Source: a virus (Duplodnaviria > Caudoviricetes). Taken from it: a stretch of DNA of 60,585 nucleotides. A program made the translations under genes and the position numbers. Below the pieces are notes generated by a model. It had not been told where the DNA came from, searched no databases, and saw only the letters and a program-made list of their open reading frames with translations. Positions 3,966-33,734 of this stretch are shown here, piece after piece. The stretch is taken from positions 1 to 60,585 of the IMG/VR virus record IMGVR_UViG_3300034110_000180. One strand, written 5' to 3'. Position 1 is the stretch's first letter. Each line of letters begins with the position of its first letter.

Positions 3966-4484
3966 ATGGCAACACCAAAGAAAGTCGAGCTTGGAGAACC
4001 AACCCAGCTTCGCAGAGCAACTGTTCATGAGATCGCAGACAAGCTCAAGGATGCGTTTGTAGTCGTGGCCACCGAACGGGCTGACCGCACAGAAGCGGAG
4101 GCTGTCGTTGGTGAAATCATCCGTGACCTTGAGGTACAGAAGCGCGAAGTCACCATGAAACTGCTAGGCCTCGACAATCGTTGGGGTAAGTGGGAGGTCG
4201 ACCACTGCAATGGGAGAACATCCCCAACCACTGACTACCTTGCAAGTGAAGGGCGTGATTTGGTTAAGGCGTGGGTTAACGAGGCGGTCAAGGAAGTCTT
4301 CACCGCCGACGCCAAGGACAAGTTTATGAAGGAGTGCAAGAAGGCGATACTCAACGAGCTCAAAAACGTTAGCGGCAGTTACAAGACTCGCGAGTACGTA
4401 GAGTCTTTGGTGTCAGACATACGCACGGCACTGGTAAACGAAGCAGCCAAAGAACTACGAGCTGAGCTCGGATTACTCAACTAA
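3966..4484 (+). CDS. Hypothetical helical protein
   Basis: ORF fills the gap between neighbours; GGAG SD. Confidence 0.75.
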   Translation: MATPKKVELGEPTQLRRATVHEIADKLKDAFVVVATERADRTEAEAVVGEIIRDLEVQKREVTMKLLGLDNRWGKWEVDHCNGRTSPTTDYLASEGRDLVKAWVNEAVKEVFTADAKDKFMKECKKAILNELKNVSGSYKTREYVESLVSDIRTALVNEAAKELRAELGLLN

Positions 4485-23924: not shown

Positions 23925-24179
23925 TTAGCATTTCCAAGCCCGCAGGCTTTTGTTGATCCGACTGTTGGGGTCTTTGGCAGTTTTTTCACTGGTCAGCTTC
24001 TCCTTCATGCCCTCCATGCGAGCGCAGAATGAGTCACGTCGTGGGCCACCTTCAGGTTGAGGGGCCTTAAGCCCGGGCTTGCCGGGGTTGGCTTTATTGT
24101 ATGAGGCGCGCCCCTTGGCGTTGAGTCCGCCTTTTTCGGACTTGCCTTCTTTGCGTGTCCACGCTGGTGTCTTGGCCAT
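23925..24179 (-). CDS. Small basic phage protein (DUF6321-like)
   Basis: AWTRKEGK..GGLNAKGRASY..RRDSFCARM..SLRAWKC; AAGGAG SD. Confidence 0.8.
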   Translation of the reverse strand: MAKTPAWTRKEGKSEKGGLNAKGRASYNKANPGKPGLKAPQPEGGPRRDSFCARMEGMKEKLTSEKTAKDPNSRINKSLRAWKC

Positions 24180-24189
24180 AGGGTTCTCC

Positions 24190-27100
24190 TTAGTTGGCGG
24201 CTACATCTTCGGCCAGCTTGCGCTGGTCCTTGCGGTACTGCACACCACCGACGGTGCGCTGCTCGCGCTGCGCTTGCTCCTGCGGTGCCTTCAGCAGGTC
24301 CGACACTGGCTGTGGCTTGAGGCCGTTGCGCTGGCGAGTCTGCTGCAGTTTAGTCCATGCTTCACGGGCTTCCTGCATGGAGGCGGTGTCCTTCTGGCGC
24401 ACTGCTTTGGCGTACTGGTTCTTGATGCTCTTGGTGCGATCTTGGAAGTTTTCCGTGATGTCGCGCATGCGGTTCTGACGCTCGTAGGTGACAGCCTGTT
24501 TTACAGACGGCACGCCCAGTCCAGTCATGATCGCTGACATCGCACTGATTTCGCTTTCAGGCAGGATCACGTCGCCGTTACGGCGAGTCATACCTTCCGT
24601 GGCCAAGCGGCCAGCCTTTAACGCATCCGACACGCCCTTAGGCATGATCTGCTCAATGCCTTTGTAGTAGTCGCCTTGGCCCATACGGATCAGACCGTCG
24701 GCCATCCGGGTGGTCATACCCAGAGAAGCGCCGCCCAACAATGTTCCAAACGCTTCGGCGCGACCGGCGGTAGTGCTCAGATCAGCATCACTGAACGGCA
24801 TGATGGACAGCATGTTGCCCGAGCCGATCTTGCCGGACAGGTCCACGCCAGCCAGCGTTGGAGCGCCGCGCATAATCATGTCAGCCCACTCAGGGCCGAT
24901 GGCTTTGCGCATGTCGGCAGTCAGGTCGTACGGCTCATCGTCGTCACCGAAGGCACCCAAGACAAACGCAATGGCCGCATACCCGGGCAGGCCCATCATG
25001 CCAGCAAACGCCGCAGTGTGGCCCAACGAGTAGGCCAGTGTCTTCATGGCCGCAGCACGCTCGTCTGGCTTGGTGAATGCATCACGAATCAGCTTGGCAT
25101 AGAACGCGATCTGGATCAACTGGAACTTGCGGAACTGCAGCGCGATCTTGCCCCACTGGGTGTTGAAGACTCGAGGAGCGTTGAACGCTGTGTAGTCGCC
25201 GTGCGTGTCCGTCAGGATGTCAGCAGCGTACTGGGTTGCTGCAGCTCTAGGGTCTGCAATTTTTGGGTCTTTTTTAGCCCGCTCAAACTCCAGACGGTAG
25301 GCGGCGATGGCTGTAGACAGTCGGTTGACCGCTTCAGTTTTCTGCACGGCCATGCGCATGCCCTTGTTCAGGCGCTGCGCGAACTTGCTGAGTTTGTTGT
25401 CGGCGTCGACCTTGTACTCGTTGATCTCAGTGGCCAGACCGATGTCGATCTTGCCTTGGTTGACCAAGTCGTTGATGGCCTTGCGCACGTCGGCAGGCAC
25501 CTTGGAGAAGTCAAACTGCTGGTCGATCAACTTCACGTCCTTGAACAGCGGGGCCAGATCAGTGTAGGCCTTGGCCATTTCCGACGCGGCCTTGGTGTAG
25601 TCATGGCGACCCGCCATGGCAGGCAGCGACATCATGAACGGCTGTGTCAAGTTCTGCAGGTAGTACGCAGGGCTGGAGGCCAAGAAGAACTTGGATGCCA
25701 GATTGGTCAGGCCACTGACCCACGTGTTTACCTTGACGTCCAGCGAGTCTGCGTAGCGCTGGGTCAGCTCGTTGAAGAGTTCCGACTTGCGCTCACGGTC
25801 ACCAGAGCGGGATTCATTGCGCATGTTCTGCAGCTGGTCTTGCACCAGTGGCTCGAACTGTACGTTGGCCATAAAGTTGGCGTCGGCTCGGCCTTGCTGT
25901 GTGAACGACTGGAGCATGTCCACTTCACCGGCGATACCACGGCGGCGCATCTCAGACTTGCGGGCGCTGCCCTCAGCCAATGCCTCCAAGTACAACTGGT
26001 TGATGATGGACAGCATCTTGCCAGCAGTGGGGTCAGCGCCAACCCGCTTGTCCACAGCAGCGCGCATATTGGTCAGCGCCGGCAGAAGCGCCTCGCCACT
26101 GAAAGCTTTTTCAAACGCTTCTGAGCGTGTAACAAGGTTCAGTTCGTCGAACGCGCCCTGCTCTTCCAGCCGGTCTTTCAGGCTGCGGGCTTCCCACTTG
26201 CTGTCAGCAAAGCTCACATGGTAGTGGTCCGGATCAGACTCGAGCGCCTTGACGCGCTTGGTGTCGTTGGCTTTTACGGCGGCCATGTACTCTTTGGACT
26301 TGCCGATCACGACGTGGGTTCCATTGCGCTTGATGGGCGCGTAGGGCATTCCCTCACGCAGACGGAACAGTGTCTGGAACCGCTTGAGCGAAGCTGCCTT
26401 CTCGGCCTTGAGGGCTGCCAAATTTTCTTTGGCTTTCTCCAAAGCTTCTTCGTCGGTGGTGACGTTGACTAAGGCTTGCGACTCTTTAATCATGGCGTCG
26501 TACTCGGACGTTGCCGCATCCAAGACAACCTTCTTCTTGTCGGCCAGCATCTTGTCGCCGTGGGCGAACACGTCCTTGATGAACTTCTGAGCCTTTGACT
26601 CTCGACCGCCGGGCAACGCCATGGCATCGAACGCAGCTCCCATCTTGGGATCGCGGTATTTGCCGTAGCCCCACTTGCCGGTGCGTGTGGACTCGAACAG
26701 GAAGTCGTTGACACTGCCACGGGCGGAGCCTTTGAACTGCTGCTCGATGTTGGCATAGCCGTCGGCGATCTTCTCGATCTCGCGCTCCAGCTCACTGACA
26801 CGGGAGGCCCGGCGGGCCAGCACGTCGGCAAACTTCTGAGCCGATGGCATACCAGCGGCCACTGCACGCTTGACCAAGTCACTGGTGAACACAGCGTAGT
26901 CCAGATACTTGCCACCCAGATCGCCGAGAGCGCCTACAGTGTTGCGGACCGGCTGCCGCAGCTGCTTGGGCAGCTTGCGTACATTGCTGTCGATCAGGCC
27001 TTTTCTTTGGCGACTGGCTCGAGAAACTGCGCCAACAGGCTGCGCCCCTTGCTGTCCAGCTTGAACTTGTCCTGACTGAGCACCTTGCTGGGCACCTTGG

Positions 27101-30100
27101 GTGGCTGCGTAGTTTGTGGCTTTGACTGCTGCATGTGCTTTCTCCATAAAAGCGTGTGTTGTGGGGAGGTTATCACGGAGGTAGTCCATGCCACCACCCA
27201 TGTTGGAAAAAGCCCACACCTGCGCGAAAACTTCCTCACGCAGCTCCTGAGCTGTCAAAGCTCGGTTGAGCTTGTCGGACATGTCCAGCGGGTAGTTGAG
27301 CAGGTAGCCCAACGCCGTTGTGTCGCTGTTGTCCTCGAAGTAAGTCAGCAGTTCGTCCGCGACCGACCCGGGGCGCATGGCCATGGGCTCACCGTTCACC
27401 TTGGACATCTTGAACTCTTTGTCACCAGAGAACTTGCCCAAGCCGCCTTGCACTTCGTCGATCCCATGGCCGGCTTCGTGGAGTGTGGCGATGGTAGACA
27501 GCTCTTTGTCCTTCAGGATCAGGCCGTTGTAGACGATGGTGCGCTTGCCATTCATCATGGTGTAGATCGCGTCCCACTTCACAGGCGAGAACGTAACCAT
27601 CCACGAGTCGATGGCGTCAACAGCGTTGCCCATACCAGACTTGCGCAGGCTACGGATACCAGCAGCAATGCCGTCAGAGTACCCGGACAGGTCTTCCAGC
27701 GAAGCCTCCACAGACTCGAAGTCAACGCCGTCTTGGTCGGTAGTGCGGACACTGCGACGCGACATACGGGTAAACCCTAACTCAGCTTTAACCAGCTTGG
27801 CCAGCTCGGTTTCAACATCGTTCTCGGTCCAGTTGTCCGGGCCGAACTCAATGAACGTCTTGCGCTGCGCGTCAGTCAGGTCCGCGAACTTGGGGGCTGC
27901 TGGGTACGTGCTGGCTACTTTGTCCCACGCTTCGGCTGCTTGCTCGGCTTGGGTGGGGATTTTGGTTGGGGCTTGGCTTTTTTCGGCAGGCTTTGGGGCA
28001 CGCCGTACTTGTCCGCCCACTCCTTGGCCAGCTTCGGCTTTTGGCTGAACAGGTACGCTTGCTGGGCTTTCGACTTGAACGGCATTGGTGTCTCCACGGC
28101 TTTGCAGCTCAGCAGTGATTTTGCCTGCGAGCTCTGTGTTTTTGATGGTGTCGCGCACGTAGGGCAGCAGCAGGCCCAAGTCTTCCGACGAGAGCTTGGT
28201 GATGTCCCGGCCAGCATCTTTCCAGCGCTGCTGGGCTTCTTTGACTGTGGCCGGTGCCTTGGACACTGGAGCAGCCTTGGGGGCGTCCTTCGCAGCCGCT
28301 TCGGCCATCAGAGTATCAAGCTTGGCGCTGAGCTCGTCGATGCGGGCTTGCACGGACTGCGCGGCCTCAACTACGCCAAGCTGAGTGAGTTCAGCTTTGG
28401 TCGCTTTCAGTTCATCAATGGCATCGGCCAGCTTGACAAATTTGACCGCCGTGTCGCTCCCTGCGGTGCTGGACTTTTGCCAGTACCTAGAGTCGTCAGC
28501 GTTTGCATCCACGTCACCTTCAGCGGTGTCGTCAACCGCCGCCTCAGCATCAACCTCCCCATCTACAGACTCTTGCGCCTGCGTGAGGTCAACAGCCCCT
28601 TCCGTGGTGGACTCGATGCCAAGCTCGGTGAACACCTGATTTCGGTCGAAGCCCATGGACACCGCGATGTCTGCAAGCTTTTCTGGGTTTCCGATCTGCC
28701 GAACACGGCTGCCCTTAATGCCAAACGCCGCGCCGACCTTTTCGCTTGTCTTGACTCTTTCCCCTTGGGCTGCCTTGCGTGCAAGAATATAGGCGCGCAA
28801 GATTTTGCGGTCGCGGTCTTTGTTTTTGCCCTTGCCGACTTGCTCTTCGATGATCGCGTCGAGGTCTTCCTTGGTAAATTCTTTCTGGTCTTGGCGCTTG
28901 CCAGCGGCGTCGGCCAGCGTAGCGTCCAGACCTGCGGTGTTACCGGTCTCACGGGCGATCTCAACGTAGTTCGCCAGCGCAGCGTCTTGATCCTCGACGG
29001 CTTCCTGCTTGCTCAGGCGCAGGGTCGTATTGGCCTTTACTGGGGCGGCATCGGTGATGGCGGCAGGCGTTTGTCCTTGCGGCGCTGTTTGGATGGTTTG
29101 AGGGGCTTGAGGGCCACTTGGTGCTCCGGTAGTTACAGTGGTAGATGGTTGGCCGGGGGCGACTGGAAGAACGCCAGCTTGTTGAAGTGCTCCTCCAGCG
29201 ACGGCGGGACTTCTGACCATTGTTCCTGTGACAGGAGCAGCTGGTCCTGCATCTCCCATGCCTCCCGGAACGACAGCGCCCCCGACTCCCACGCCTCCTG
29301 CAGGCTGCTGAACAGCTGGTATTCCTGTGCCACTTGCTGCCTCCTTAGATGCGTTGATCAACGCCTCGTCCATCAGTTCGAGGGCTTTGTTGTAGCGCTT
29401 TTCGGACATGTATTTTTCACCGGCAAAGTTCCACACAGGAACCATGACGGCTGACTTTGGGTCCACACCGCTTTCGGCCATTACATCAAACAGCTTGCGG
29501 CTAAAGCTGTTCGGGATTACCTTCAACTCATCACGGATGAAAACATCCTTGGGGTCGCGGGTAGTAGCTACACTAGCCATCACTTGGGCGGCGGCAGCGG
29601 TTTCTGCAGGCTTTTCCTGAGTCAAGTCCAGCGCAGCTTGTGAGCGCTGAAGAGCTTCGCCAACCGTCAGGGGGCGCTCGATACCTGTTTCTGGGTCGTT
29701 GACAAACTGGCCCGTTGGCTCGTCGTATGCAGCCTTGAATTGAGCTTCATAGTCTTTGGCTTTGCGCTTTGGACGGTTGACGCCCACGTTCTGGTTGATG
29801 AAGGTCTGCAGGCCAACGGTTTGGTCTTGCGTCACAAACTGACTATCCAGCGGGCGCTGCTCCGGGGGTGTCTGGTCTTCGGTAGCGGACGAGGTCAGGT
29901 CGCGCTCACGAGCGGAATCGCGGTAGCCTTGGCTACGACGCCAGCCCCCACCAACACCACCCAGTAGGCCGCCCAGCAGGCCGCCTCCGACAAACGACTC
30001 TGCATAATCGTCCATGGCTTGCGGGCTGAAAAGCTCTACCCGGGGGTCGATGGCCAGACGGCCAACATTGGATATGTACTCTTGGCCGACTTCACCGCCG

Positions 30101-30729
30101 GCTTCAGATATGCCAGTACGAGTGGCAGCTGCACCAGTGCGCGCAGCACCGCCAGTAAACCCGCCGAGATTGTCGAGGTATCGGTTGGCTGCTACCGCAG
30201 CACGTTCAGCCCGAAGGCCGGTTCCGGCCAGCTTGCCGACAACACCAGTCGCAGCTTCAACACCGCCGTAGGCCAAGCCAAGAGGGATCGCAGTGAGGTC
30301 TGTACGACCAGACTGCTCCCGTTGGGCCTGCATAATTTCACCGATACCGCTCAGACCTGCGACGCCATAAGCTGCGGCGGGCCCTGCAAGCAGACCAGCG
30401 CCAACAACAGGTGCCAGCTCAGGAAGTGTCTGAACACCAAGCTCAGCAGCGTAGCGGCCAACGTCGCCGACGCCGGAAATGTTTTTGTACGAGCCCACCG
30501 CATCTTGGTTGGTGTCGTAGTAGCGCTGGGAGGTGCGCTGGGCCTCAGCTTCCTGCTCCAGCCGGTAGTCCCGGGAAAGCCCCAAGGGCTCGAGCATGCC
30601 GTACGCCTTGGCCTGAAGGCGATCTACGGCGGACCCGCCCAATTCAGACAACCCAGCTTCAGGTGCTTCTACACGATACTGCTTGCTGTAGCGCGCTGCA
30701 ATTTCTTCGTCTGTCAGGCGGCGGGACAT
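24190..30729 (-). CDS. Giant internal virion / ejection protein (polyvalent-protein-like)
   Basis: 2179 aa at end of structural arm; HEAGH..EEVFA zincin-like motif; PYAPIKRNG resembles PLxRFG. Confidence 0.8.
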   Translation of the reverse strand: MSRRLTDEEIAARYSKQYRVEAPEAGLSELGGSAVDRLQAKAYGMLEPLGLSRDYRLEQEAEAQRTSQRYYDTNQDAVGSYKNISGVGDVGRYAAELGVQTLPELAPVVGAGLLAGPAAAYGVAGLSGIGEIMQAQREQSGRTDLTAIPLGLAYGGVEAATGVVGKLAGTGLRAERAAVAANRYLDNLGGFTGGAARTGAAATRTGISEAGGEVGQEYISNVGRLAIDPRVELFSPQAMDDYAESFVGGGLLGGLLGGVGGGWRRSQGYRDSARERDLTSSATEDQTPPEQRPLDSQFVTQDQTVGLQTFINQNVGVNRPKRKAKDYEAQFKAAYDEPTGQFVNDPETGIERPLTVGEALQRSQAALDLTQEKPAETAAAAQVMASVATTRDPKDVFIRDELKVIPNSFSRKLFDVMAESGVDPKSAVMVPVWNFAGEKYMSEKRYNKALELMDEALINASKEAASGTGIPAVQQPAGGVGVGGAVVPGGMGDAGPAAPVTGTMVRSPAVAGGALQQAGVLPVAPGQPSTTVTTGAPSGPQAPQTIQTAPQGQTPAAITDAAPVKANTTLRLSKQEAVEDQDAALANYVEIARETGNTAGLDATLADAAGKRQDQKEFTKEDLDAIIEEQVGKGKNKDRDRKILRAYILARKAAQGERVKTSEKVGAAFGIKGSRVRQIGNPEKLADIAVSMGFDRNQVFTELGIESTTEGAVDLTQAQESVDGEVDAEAAVDDTAEGDVDANADDSRYWQKSSTAGSDTAVKFVKLADAIDELKATKAELTQLGVVEAAQSVQARIDELSAKLDTLMAEAAAKDAPKAAPVSKAPATVKEAQQRWKDAGRDITKLSSEDLGLLLPYVRDTIKNTELAGKITAELQSRGDTNAVQVESPASVPVQPKAEAGQGVGGQVRRAPKPAEKSQAPTKIPTQAEQAAEAWDKVASTYPAAPKFADLTDAQRKTFIEFGPDNWTENDVETELAKLVKAELGFTRMSRRSVRTTDQDGVDFESVEASLEDLSGYSDGIAAGIRSLRKSGMGNAVDAIDSWMVTFSPVKWDAIYTMMNGKRTIVYNGLILKDKELSTIATLHEAGHGIDEVQGGLGKFSGDKEFKMSKVNGEPMAMRPGSVADELLTYFEDNSDTTALGYLLNYPLDMSDKLNRALTAQELREEVFAQVWAFSNMGGGMDYLRDNLPTTHAFMEKAHAAVKATNYAATQGAQQGAQSGQVQAGQQGAQPVGAVSRASRQRKGLIDSNVRKLPKQLRQPVRNTVGALGDLGGKYLDYAVFTSDLVKRAVAAGMPSAQKFADVLARRASRVSELEREIEKIADGYANIEQQFKGSARGSVNDFLFESTRTGKWGYGKYRDPKMGAAFDAMALPGGRESKAQKFIKDVFAHGDKMLADKKKVVLDAATSEYDAMIKESQALVNVTTDEEALEKAKENLAALKAEKAASLKRFQTLFRLREGMPYAPIKRNGTHVVIGKSKEYMAAVKANDTKRVKALESDPDHYHVSFADSKWEARSLKDRLEEQGAFDELNLVTRSEAFEKAFSGEALLPALTNMRAAVDKRVGADPTAGKMLSIINQLYLEALAEGSARKSEMRRRGIAGEVDMLQSFTQQGRADANFMANVQFEPLVQDQLQNMRNESRSGDRERKSELFNELTQRYADSLDVKVNTWVSGLTNLASKFFLASSPAYYLQNLTQPFMMSLPAMAGRHDYTKAASEMAKAYTDLAPLFKDVKLIDQQFDFSKVPADVRKAINDLVNQGKIDIGLATEINEYKVDADNKLSKFAQRLNKGMRMAVQKTEAVNRLSTAIAAYRLEFERAKKDPKIADPRAAATQYAADILTDTHGDYTAFNAPRVFNTQWGKIALQFRKFQLIQIAFYAKLIRDAFTKPDERAAAMKTLAYSLGHTAAFAGMMGLPGYAAIAFVLGAFGDDDEPYDLTADMRKAIGPEWADMIMRGAPTLAGVDLSGKIGSGNMLSIMPFSDADLSTTAGRAEAFGTLLGGASLGMTTRMADGLIRMGQGDYYKGIEQIMPKGVSDALKAGRLATEGMTRRNGDVILPESEISAMSAIMTGLGVPSVKQAVTYERQNRMRDITENFQDRTKSIKNQYAKAVRQKDTASMQEAREAWTKLQQTRQRNGLKPQPVSDLLKAPQEQAQREQRTVGGVQYRKDQRKLAEDVAAN
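26994..27134 (-). CDS. Nested +1-frame ORF, 46 aa (MQQSKPQ...)
   Basis: GGAG 7 nt before ATG; overlies a low-complexity stretch of the host ORF. Confidence 0.35.
   Translation of the reverse strand: MQQSKPQTTQPPKVPSKVLSQDKFKLDSKGRSLLAQFLEPVAKEKA
27915..28085 (-). CDS. Nested +1-frame ORF, 56-aa basic protein MPFKSKAQQAYLF...
   Basis: GGAG 6 nt before ATG; N-terminus resembles small phage proteins starting MPFKSxAQ (recall, unverified). Confidence 0.6.
   Translation of the reverse strand: MPFKSKAQQAYLFSQKPKLAKEWADKYGVPQSLPKKAKPQPKSPPKPSKQPKRGTK
29037..29117 (-). CDS. Nested +1-frame ORF, 26 aa (MALKPLKPSKQRRK...)
   Basis: GGAG 6 nt before GTG, just downstream of the previous nested ORF. 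Confidence 0.3.
   Translation of the reverse strand: MALKPLKPSKQRRKDKRLPPSPMPPQ
29133..29333 (-). CDS. Nested +1-frame ORF, 66-aa acidic protein
   Basis: TAAGGAGG 6 nt before GTG; protein-like composition. Confidence 0.55.
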   Translation of the reverse strand: MAQEYQLFSSLQEAWESGALSFREAWEMQDQLLLSQEQWSEVPPSLEEHFNKLAFFQSPPANHLPL

Positions 30730-33317: not shown

Positions 33318-33734
33318 TTACTCCTTGCGCAGCCAACGACATGTGTCGGGCCGCATTACCAAAACATGCATGTCGGCACCGGGGGCACCGTCCTTCATCA
33401 CGAACTCTTCCTCGAACCCGAGGTGCTTGTCGAACGCTATGACGTGAGGCTCGTTGGATGGAACCATCCCTGTAAGCCGCTTTAGTCCTGCGTAGTTGAA
33501 GGCGTAGTCGCACACCGCCCGTAGCATGGGGATGATCTTCTTGGTCTGCTTGGCGATGGCTATGTGGCACGTCGCATTGGCTCCGTTGAAGTTGTTGATG
33601 ACTACACCCGCAATCACCTCGTCACCATCGACCACACCCAGCGCGTAGAAGCTGCCCCAGCTAGCACCTTGGCCAACCTGCTGGGCAACCCATGCACCGA
33701 TACGATCTGCTTGGTCATAAACGAGTTCTGCCAT
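33318..33734 (-). CDS. GNAT-fold virion-associated protein
   Basis: YAFN..LKRLTG..HLGFEEE; position matches podovirus gp13-like genes. Confidence 0.75.
   Translation of the reverse strand: MAELVYDQADRIGAWVAQQVGQGASWGSFYALGVVDGDEVIAGVVINNFNGANATCHIAIAKQTKKIIPMLRAVCDYAFNYAGLKRLTGMVPSNEPHVIAFDKHLGFEEEFVMKDGAPGADMHVLVMRPDTCRWLRKE

Follow-up and report, generated by a model that had tools for sequence, protein, structure and literature searches.

Short genes likely translated from within the +1 frame of a giant phage virion-module gene, one of them from a family recurrently nested in unrelated host genes

Phages are known to carry genes embedded in the +1 frame of a larger gene, as with Rz1 within Rz in lysis cassettes. 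Small viruses carry overprinted genes as well, such as B within A and E within D of phiX174, and in classical overprinting the nested frame is young, has arisen de novo and resides in a tiny genome. Among giant phage proteins, DarB of phage P1 carries methylase and helicase domains, and gp75 of phage Bcep22 is virion-associated. The ShiLan HNH element, as described in PMC11855218, is a homing endonuclease gene inserted out of frame into a host gene that reads through it. The subject of the present analysis is the virus record IMGVR_UViG_3300034110_000180, a complete 60,585-bp record from lake-water metagenomes that is referred to below as the window. Four short open reading frames (ORF1 to ORF4) lie there in the +1 frame of a gene encoding a giant protein of the virion module, hereafter the host gene, and one of them, ORF3, belongs to a family of small proteins that begin with MPFKS.

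The Rz/Rz1 pairs, which are also annotated in phage PEp14, resemble this arrangement in that a small same-strand gene with its own start lies wholly inside a larger one, in its +1 frame, and both are retained in many phages. They differ in that Rz1, a lipoprotein, has a signal sequence and a lipobox cysteine, whereas none of the four nested peptides contains a cysteine and thus none has an Rz1-type lipobox. Moreover, the host is here a virion protein rather than a spanin, and several genes are nested in one host. As in phiX174, two proteins derive from one DNA stretch and the constraint falls mostly on one frame, but here the nested MPFKS frame looks older and the host linker younger, and the genome is that of a 60-kb dsDNA phage. 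The ShiLan host gene likewise stays open over a segment that codes in another frame, and its protein is thought to carry that segment as a loop; that segment is a mobile homing endonuclease insertion, whereas ORF1 to ORF4 show no nuclease or mobility function (no nuclease match in Pfam or PHROGs) and MPFKS also occurs free-standing. ORF3 shares invariant residues, size and a basic tail with phrog_1375, a catalogued family without an assigned function. The host protein is similar to the PLxRFG or 'DarB-like' giants of Bcep22- and PEp14-like podophages in its C-terminal ~ 750 amino acids (aa) and in its position after the internal virion genes; it is, however, half their size, its N-terminal half is unrelated, and the literal motif PL.RFG is absent, with ALQFRK at aa 1863 instead. 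Relative to these systems, the differences are the presence of several nested genes in one giant virion gene, the recurrent nesting of a widespread family in unrelated hosts, and a nested frame that looks like the older of the two.

All four ORFs, which an earlier note on this DNA had placed in the +1 frame of the giant gene, were recovered there by translation of the minus strand (Table 1), and the distance of each start from position 30729 is 1 modulo 3. The spacing between the Shine-Dalgarno (SD) sequence and the start codon, given in that note as 6–7 nucleotides (nt), was measured as 6, 6, 6 and 7 nt. The host protein had been described as turning into an odd G/A/V/P/Q-rich linker at each ORF; its peptide there is indeed rich in G/A/V/P/Q/T and of low complexity, with a host-frame ratio of nonsynonymous to synonymous differences per site (pN/pS) of 0.9–2.2. 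ORFs of at least 25 aa whose start codon follows GGAG by 5–9 nt number six in frame +1 of the giant gene and zero in frames 0 and +2. Of the six sites, four belong to the ORFs described here, a fifth is an internal Met of ORF1 and the sixth lies elsewhere. With a spacing of 4–9 nt, eight SD-led +1 ORFs were counted against 1.35 ± 1.18 in 500 codon shuffles, none of which (0/500) reached six. The observation of the four ORFs is correct and beyond chance.

Table 1 Positions in the window of the giant host gene, the four nested ORFs and their Shine-Dalgarno sequences.
Feature	Coordinates	Strand	Description
Host gene, 2179-aa giant virion-module protein	24190..30729	-	ORF translation, phrog_10089, tblastn, gene neighbourhood
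Nested ORF1	29133..29333	-	+1 frame; GTG start, 66 aa
Nested ORF2	29037..29117	-	+1 frame; GTG start, 26 aa; begins 16 nt past the ORF1 stop
Nested ORF3	27915..28085	-	+1 frame; ATG start, 56 aa; MPFKS family (phrog_1375)
Nested ORF4	26994..27134	-	+1 frame; ATG start, 46 aa
ORF1 SD, TAAGGAGG	29340..29347	-	6 nt before GTG; read from sequence
ORF2 SD, GGAG	29124..29127	-	6 nt before GTG
ORF3 SD, GGAG	28092..28095	-	6 nt before ATG; kept in close relatives
ORF4 SD, GGAG	27142..27145	-	7 nt before ATG

The clade sample comprised 42 loci, namely the window, five close IMG/VR relatives (L004–L008) and 36 loci that the ORF1 family retrieved from metagenomes. In a host-protein alignment of six sequences, differences were scored at host codon positions 1, 2 and 3. 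Flanking and normal regions gave ~ 0.46/0.42/0.63, compared with 0.279/0.166/0.135 over ORF1 and 0.249/0.067/0.037 over the ORF3 core. Over ORF4 the values were 0.145/0.116/0.080 against ~ 0.12/0.11/0.37 in its flanks (window, L005 and L006). Since host position 1 coincides with position 3 of the +1 frame, the flipped pattern is the signature of +1 coding. An unbiased sliding scan of the whole gene flagged host aa 466–535, 876–935 and 1191–1235, which correspond to ORF1, ORF3 and ORF4. One extra, lone 20-codon window (host aa 1651–1670) was flagged in a three-sequence subset, and nothing else of comparable length. A further SD-led +1 ORF (giant-gene nt 4103, 45 aa, within a 141-aa ORF at 26915–26490) lacked the flipped substitution pattern and was rejected.

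Frame-specific selection, for which the earlier note had suggested a dN/dS comparison, was assessed by computing pN/pS with the Nei-Gojobori method in the +1 and host frames. The respective values were 0.35 and 1.52 for ORF1 (29 unique sequences), 0.06 and 1.31 for ORF2 (8 unique sequences, chosen via the +1 frame), 0.15 and 2.24 for aa 1–36 of ORF3 (12 unique sequences), and 0.25 and 0.90 for ORF4 (8 unique sequences). Seven control stretches gave the reverse, with pN/pS of 0.18–0.43 in the host frame and 1.02–1.85 in the +1 frame; an eighth control stretch consisted of one sequence only. The ORF sets were picked by tblastn in the +1 frame and the controls by tblastn in the host frame, so that the selection bias is symmetrical, weighing most for the short ORF2. 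Within the +1 frame, pS of 0.28–0.48 compares with pN of 0.02–0.15, that is, conservation is three-periodic. The ratio is thus low in the +1 frame (0.06–0.35), high in the host frame and inverted relative to the controls, and the comparison shows selection acting on the +1-frame peptide in all four stretches.

Stops or lost starts in the +1 frame of relatives, which the earlier note had named as evidence against it, did not appear in ORF1. All 6 close loci and all 31 further IMG/VR loci retain its start, its AAGGAG-type SD and its stop, and in each of those 31 the ORF is nested in a large ORF. ORF1 is open in all 39 of the 42 clade loci that cover its stretch, and in L150 it carries an in-frame 13-codon deletion that preserves both frames. 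A collection of 5.8e9 proteins yielded 14 matches to ORF1, one of them the query itself; Atlas gave no usable match, and PHROGs a single match with an expectation value (E) of 0.043. On these sequence searches the ORF1 family is an orphan, seen nested only. In four variants (P0028, P0036, L151 and L152) some 11 residues, SQEQWSEVPPS, are replaced by LGEGEFDPPTL or LQEGMYSPPEP, segments of the same length and unrelated sequence, which would fit a compensated frameshift pair inside the nested gene.

ORF2 and ORF4 are each restricted to subclades. ORF2 is present in 22 of the 42 loci, and its 16 unique versions all start (GTG, ATG or TTG) at the aligned codon behind GGAG or GGAAG. They share the core (V/M/L)(A/P)LKPLKPSKQ(R/K)RKD(K/R) and occur in two positional contexts. 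Nearly all changes in this core are synonymous in the +1 frame, including a TCC-to-AGC serine switch. ORF4 was found in 11 of the 42 loci, together with an upstream module of the host protein that contains the motif HEAGH. The ATG and GGAG are conserved in its nine unique versions, of which the eight uncut ones are 46–47 aa long, and three homologues of 45–46 aa were retrieved from the databases. A blastn search of the region against phage records gave no match.

ORF3 connects the locus to a widespread family. A phmmer-type search among 5.8 billion proteins returned 19 called proteins of 39–80 aa, with E from 6e-18 to 9e-5. ORF3 contains the family invariants M1, P2, F3, K4, S5, Q8, P17, A20, K21, K26 and L33 and the basic tail; it also has W23, a length within the ~ 35–60 aa of the family and 15 K+R. 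Among 19 aligned members (ORF3 and 18 database hits, one hit being left out), 18 match phrog_1375, of unknown function, with a best E of 3.1e-6, and ORF3 alone matches the phrog_1375 profile with an E of 0.0037. A scan of IMG/VR confirmed at least 379 stretches among the 600 matches listed, and ~ 3100 are estimated for the whole collection. ORF3 is the sole MPFKS gene in the complete record, where the family profile scores 82.9 bits, and 36 of the 42 clade loci contain it; the six without it end soon after ORF1. The homologues share 40–60% protein identity across genomes with guanine-plus-cytosine (GC) content from 0.32 to 0.66.

The earlier note had given MPFKSxAQ..W as the start of small proteins in other aquatic phages. 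This proved correct, since free-standing ORFs of that form, 34–39 aa long and scoring 34.6–52.6 bits against the family profile, occur in phage C75C1, in Synechococcus phage S-CBS2 (unannotated) and in seawater phage 023Pt_psg01 (annotated as hypothetical). ORF3 homologues are therefore both free-standing and nested, and those of ORF1 nested only. The free-standing genes belong to clusters for head formation and packaging, and their settings include positions between a ~ 640-aa protein gene and the major head protein gene, just upstream of or after the large terminase gene, and directly after the stop of a giant gene (L041 and L074).

The conserved SD sequences and start codons, together with the free-standing homologues, argue that the four ORFs are short +1-frame genes of the giant gene, each likely to be translated independently, from its own SD and start, on the late structural mRNA. 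The earlier proposal of hidden genes overprinted in the giant gene and missed by standard gene callers is borne out by the scan, by pN/pS, by the conserved starts, SD sequences and stops, and by the free-standing ORF3 homologues. Its term nested operon is a loose one: ORF1 and ORF2 are adjacent, ORF3 and ORF4 each lie ~ 1 kb further on, and the four have only the host mRNA in common. Gene callers forbid fully nested same-strand genes, so the nested proteins are missing from annotations.

Nesting of MPFKS extends to other host genes. In a comparison of 79 MPFKS loci (76 from IMG/VR and three isolates; two loci with ORFs > 120 aa and two not matching the motif were excluded), 13 have the gene entirely within an ORF of 1248 to 4373 aa, which a contig end truncates in some of them, and nine have it within an ORF of ~ 400 aa. 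All 22 nested copies are in the +1 frame of the host. The giants that carry MPFKS have GC of 0.32–0.57 and are otherwise diverse in their domains. The ~ 400-aa ORFs are situated between the portal gene and the gene of a 468-aa structural protein, a position in which a scaffold gene would be expected. Their 50 codons upstream of MPFKS evolve as host-frame coding sequence (0.378/0.236/0.498), and the pattern is inverted in the MPFKS core (0.211/0.092/0.119). Apparent nesting in ORFs of 125–186 aa upstream of the large terminase in GC-rich loci was rejected: the next gene begins right at the MPFKS stop or beside it, an ordinary overlap of end and start, and high GC accounts for the open -1 frame there.

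A cultured example is provided by 68 records of Flavobacterium 'elemo' phages, in which an MPFKS match lies under an annotated 'structural protein'; the nested proteins are unannotated and only the 3694-aa host gene is listed. In elemoF, a 42-aa MPFKS ORF scoring 30.9 bits against the family profile lies in the +1 frame of the 3694-aa gp18, at a GC of 0.32. The host-frame motif EDAVQKQ, a marker of the MPFKS start, is present twice in elemoF gp18 (L154), and the more upstream of the two may be what remains of a second nested copy. An MPFKS-like match also lies under a giant annotated 'reticulocyte binding/rhoptry protein' in MW202828.1 (Caudoviricetes sp., 60,850 bp); this is probably one more nested gene, obscured by a misleading name that was assigned automatically. 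The literature search found no paper on the MPFKS family sequence or its nesting, with subscription journals mostly outside its coverage, so that a prior report is possible; the passages of PMC7077304 that were examined do not mention the elemo phages.

The codon choice at Phe-3 bears on the relationship between the two frames. In 22 of 22 nested loci this codon is TTC and the -1 (host) frame is free of stops, and TTC is used in all 14 nested loci with GC < 0.42. Of 23 free-standing loci with GC < 0.42, 16 have TTT, and every one of the 23 carries a stop in the -1 frame. TTT at Phe-3 would create TAA in the host frame, so TTC is forced when the gene is nested, and the contrast between the nested and the low-GC free-standing loci indicates that openness of the host frame is itself selected. 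As judged from these comparisons, the host frame is kept stop-free and is otherwise unconstrained, and the giant reads through the nested genes as flexible linkers rich in G/A/V/P/Q/E.

The same evidence bears on the alternative that the giant ORF is in fact a row of several genes interspersed with ordinary small ones, across which the host frame merely happens to be open. The host-frame pN/pS over the four stretches reveals no amino acid constraint, and in some phages MPFKS does lie right after a giant-gene stop or between separate genes. In the AT-rich loci L041 and L074 it starts 2–10 nt past the stop of a ~ 2600-aa giant gene whose C-terminus (phrog_32588) also ends giants with a nested MPFKS (L053 and L065), so that the same gene pair exists in tandem and nested layouts. 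Nonetheless, no host-frame stop occurs in any nested locus, including the 14 with GC < 0.42 in which TTC is forced, so that ribosomes in the host frame must read through, and the segments flanking each nested gene evolve as host-frame coding sequence. Separate genes are therefore considered an improbable explanation.

Programmed frameshifting from the giant gene, which would yield truncated giant isoforms ending in +1 peptides that have no starts of their own, is quite improbable. Phage structural genes commonly give frameshift products, and upstream of the starts the +1 frame is open for a median of 13 codons in ORF1, 20 in ORF3 and 21 in ORF4. However, a start and an SD stand at the exact conserved N-terminus in every relative, the free-standing MPFKS genes begin at the same Met, and an upstream +1 stop lies only 3 codons from the MPFKS ATG in 11 of 36 relatives and 0–6 codons from the ORF2 start in 17 of 22, which leaves almost no room for a shift site.

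Independently translated nested genes are also consistent with the way in which the region is exchanged among phages. In BLASTP comparisons of the giants, the segments between nested genes are replaced among relatives and the nested genes persist. In four other lake metagenomes, the summed contig depth peaks at 27992–28075, the MPFKS core, and at 29084–29167, the end of ORF1 and start of ORF2. Contigs diverge from the window exactly at 28085, the MPFKS ATG, and rejoin it at 29069 or 29217; the joint from 28085 to 29217 spans 849 other letters, and another joint, from 27763 to 27967, spans 1295. The presence or absence of ORF2 and ORF4 tracks whole-module swaps, and all three listed metagenome variants inside ORF1 fall at third positions of the +1 frame. 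The nested genes thus lie at junctions between exchangeable modules.

This arrangement offers some support to the possibility that the stretches act at the nucleotide level, for instance as recombination linkers, RNA structures or internal promoters, rather than as +1 coding sequence, since no other parts of the region are so widely shared and the breakpoints of module exchange lie at their edges. An element of this kind would be conserved evenly over positions, whereas the conservation in the +1 frame is three-periodic. The serine switch in ORF2, the deletion in L150 that spares both frames and the protein-level identity of homologues across widely different GC contents argue in the same direction. 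As a replacement for coding, such elements are very improbable; coding and nucleotide-level roles could coexist. Finally, although frame +1 of the giant gene (59% GC) contains 16 ORFs of at least 25 aa and long off-frame ORFs are usual at 57–59% GC, a chance origin of the four ORFs retains next to no probability in view of all the comparative results and the excess of SD-led ORFs (8 vs 1.35 ± 1.18), and by sequence comparison chance is excluded for ORF1 and ORF3.

Several points weigh against independently translated nested genes or against what may be said of their function. The evidence is weakest for ORF2, which is only 26 aa long, is absent from 20 of the 42 loci and has a pN/pS set chosen by +1-frame similarity. 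In the six-sequence host alignment its pattern is host-like (0.44/0.39/0.54), probably because the linker, with an indel and a replaced segment at this place, is misaligned; ORF2 was retested on gapless segments anchored in the +1 frame after this result. No free-standing or distant homologue of ORF1, ORF2 or ORF4 was found in the collections searched (proteins, PHROGs, Atlas and IMG/VR), so that their support consists of selection signatures within one phage clade. The giants of PEp14 and of Microcystis phage Mwe-JY07 contain no MPFKS gene, which is therefore not obligatory for the giant family, and the SD is weak or absent before nested MPFKS in several AT-rich lineages. With regard to function, the AlphaFold2 models have moderate confidence for ORF3 and low confidence for ORF1, a profile search of the Protein Data Bank gave zero hits, and the match of ORF3 to PF10668, the N-terminal helix-turn-helix of small terminases, stays below the Pfam gathering threshold of 22 bits, at 15.5 bits (E 0.014), and is seen in one of the 19 aligned members.

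The predicted nested proteins differ in charge. ORF1 is acidic, with an isoelectric point (pI) of 4.3, and is modeled as three helices with a predicted local distance difference test score (pLDDT) of 59.9. The other three are basic: ORF2 (pI 11.8) is Pro-rich, ORF3 has a pI of 10.5 and ORF4 of 10.0. The ORF3 model (pLDDT 70.7) consists of helices at residues 6–15 and 17–27 followed by a disordered Lys/Pro-rich tail. The gene neighbourhood and the charge suggest, as a tentative guess, that the two-helix head and polybasic tail of MPFKS might function within the head during assembly, with DNA or the acidic scaffold or internal proteins as binding partners. Some free-standing copies lie just upstream of the large terminase gene. 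Other leads were weak: the 19 aligned members gave no profile match to DUF3008 (PF11450) at E ≤ 1, the sole link being to an Atlas cluster (feature score 0.82) with DUF3008 in 37% of its members, and Ish1 was rejected with weak matches only, in 7 of the 19 members.

The minus strand of the window encodes the structural module and the plus strand the replication module. The structural genes are arranged in the order large terminase, portal, structural proteins, tail fibres, internal virion protein (phrog_511), acetyltransferase, ejection-type protein, a 527-aa protein and then the giant gene, which adjoins the genes of the internal virion and ejection proteins. The acetyltransferase gene (33318–33734, minus strand), located between the internal virion and ejection-type protein genes, is acyl-CoA N-acetyltransferase-like (phrog_4470, E 2.8e-26). 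An 84-aa ORF directly downstream of the giant gene (23925–24179, minus strand) matches the very C-terminal end of eight PHROG families that differ widely in length, such as positions 850–928 of the 928 of phrog_3477 (E 5e-37). It resembles a terminal domain that other phages have as part of larger proteins and that has a gene of its own here.

The C-terminal third of the giant protein (aa 1420–2176) matches phrog_10089, annotated 'DarB-like', with an E of 3.6e-58. In tblastn searches the C-terminus aligns with the PLxRFG giants of PEp14-, LASTA- and Parlo-type podophages at 25–28% identity, with E down to 2e-47, and also with the giant of phage Mwe-JY07. A Pfam search of the giant protein found no methylase or helicase domain and no significant domain. 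There are zero cysteines among the 2179 residues. The HEAGH sequence at aa 1084 is the single HExxH motif of the protein, and the module that bears it and co-occurs with ORF4 may be a zinc-peptidase-like domain. GGAG-led in-frame internal starts number zero in the giant's own frame, compared with 3.7 ± 1.9 in codon shuffles, a hint that initiation within this frame is avoided.

As to how the nested layout arose, the small MPFKS gene would represent the older frame, across which large genes came to read. The host frame over MPFKS reads [D/N]A[V/I]Q..S..VPVQ and then continues as an acidic stretch rich in Gln, since the Lys codons AAG and AAA are read one base earlier as codons of the GAA/CAA type. 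Capture could thus be workable, because the Lys-rich tail would supply the host with a Glu/Gln-rich linker while TTC avoids the TAA. A broader picture, which is speculative and on balance unlikely in its entirety, is that the giants of aquatic phages are strings of exchangeable modules whose joints are small, independently translated genes. These joints, being the most conserved DNA, would serve as patches of homology for recombination; MPFKS would have been captured repeatedly by unrelated virion genes, as its Lys-rich coding permits, and the basic protein would bind the acidic linker or scaffold made from the same DNA. If this is true, the dosage and inheritance of MPFKS would be tied to a partner encoded by the same DNA.

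The locus presents one host gene with three to four embedded genes, in which the amino acid constraint lies in the embedded frame and the host frame is selected only for openness, and a family, MPFKS, embedded in the same relative frame in unrelated hosts with GC from 0.32 to 0.57. It may serve as a test bed for the origin of overlapping genes, where a growing gene may capture an old one or a new one may be born de novo, and likewise for the assembly and shuffling of giant modular virion proteins and the role of a very common uncharacterised protein of the head module. Since a cultured carrier exists in the Flavobacterium phages, these questions can be addressed at the bench.

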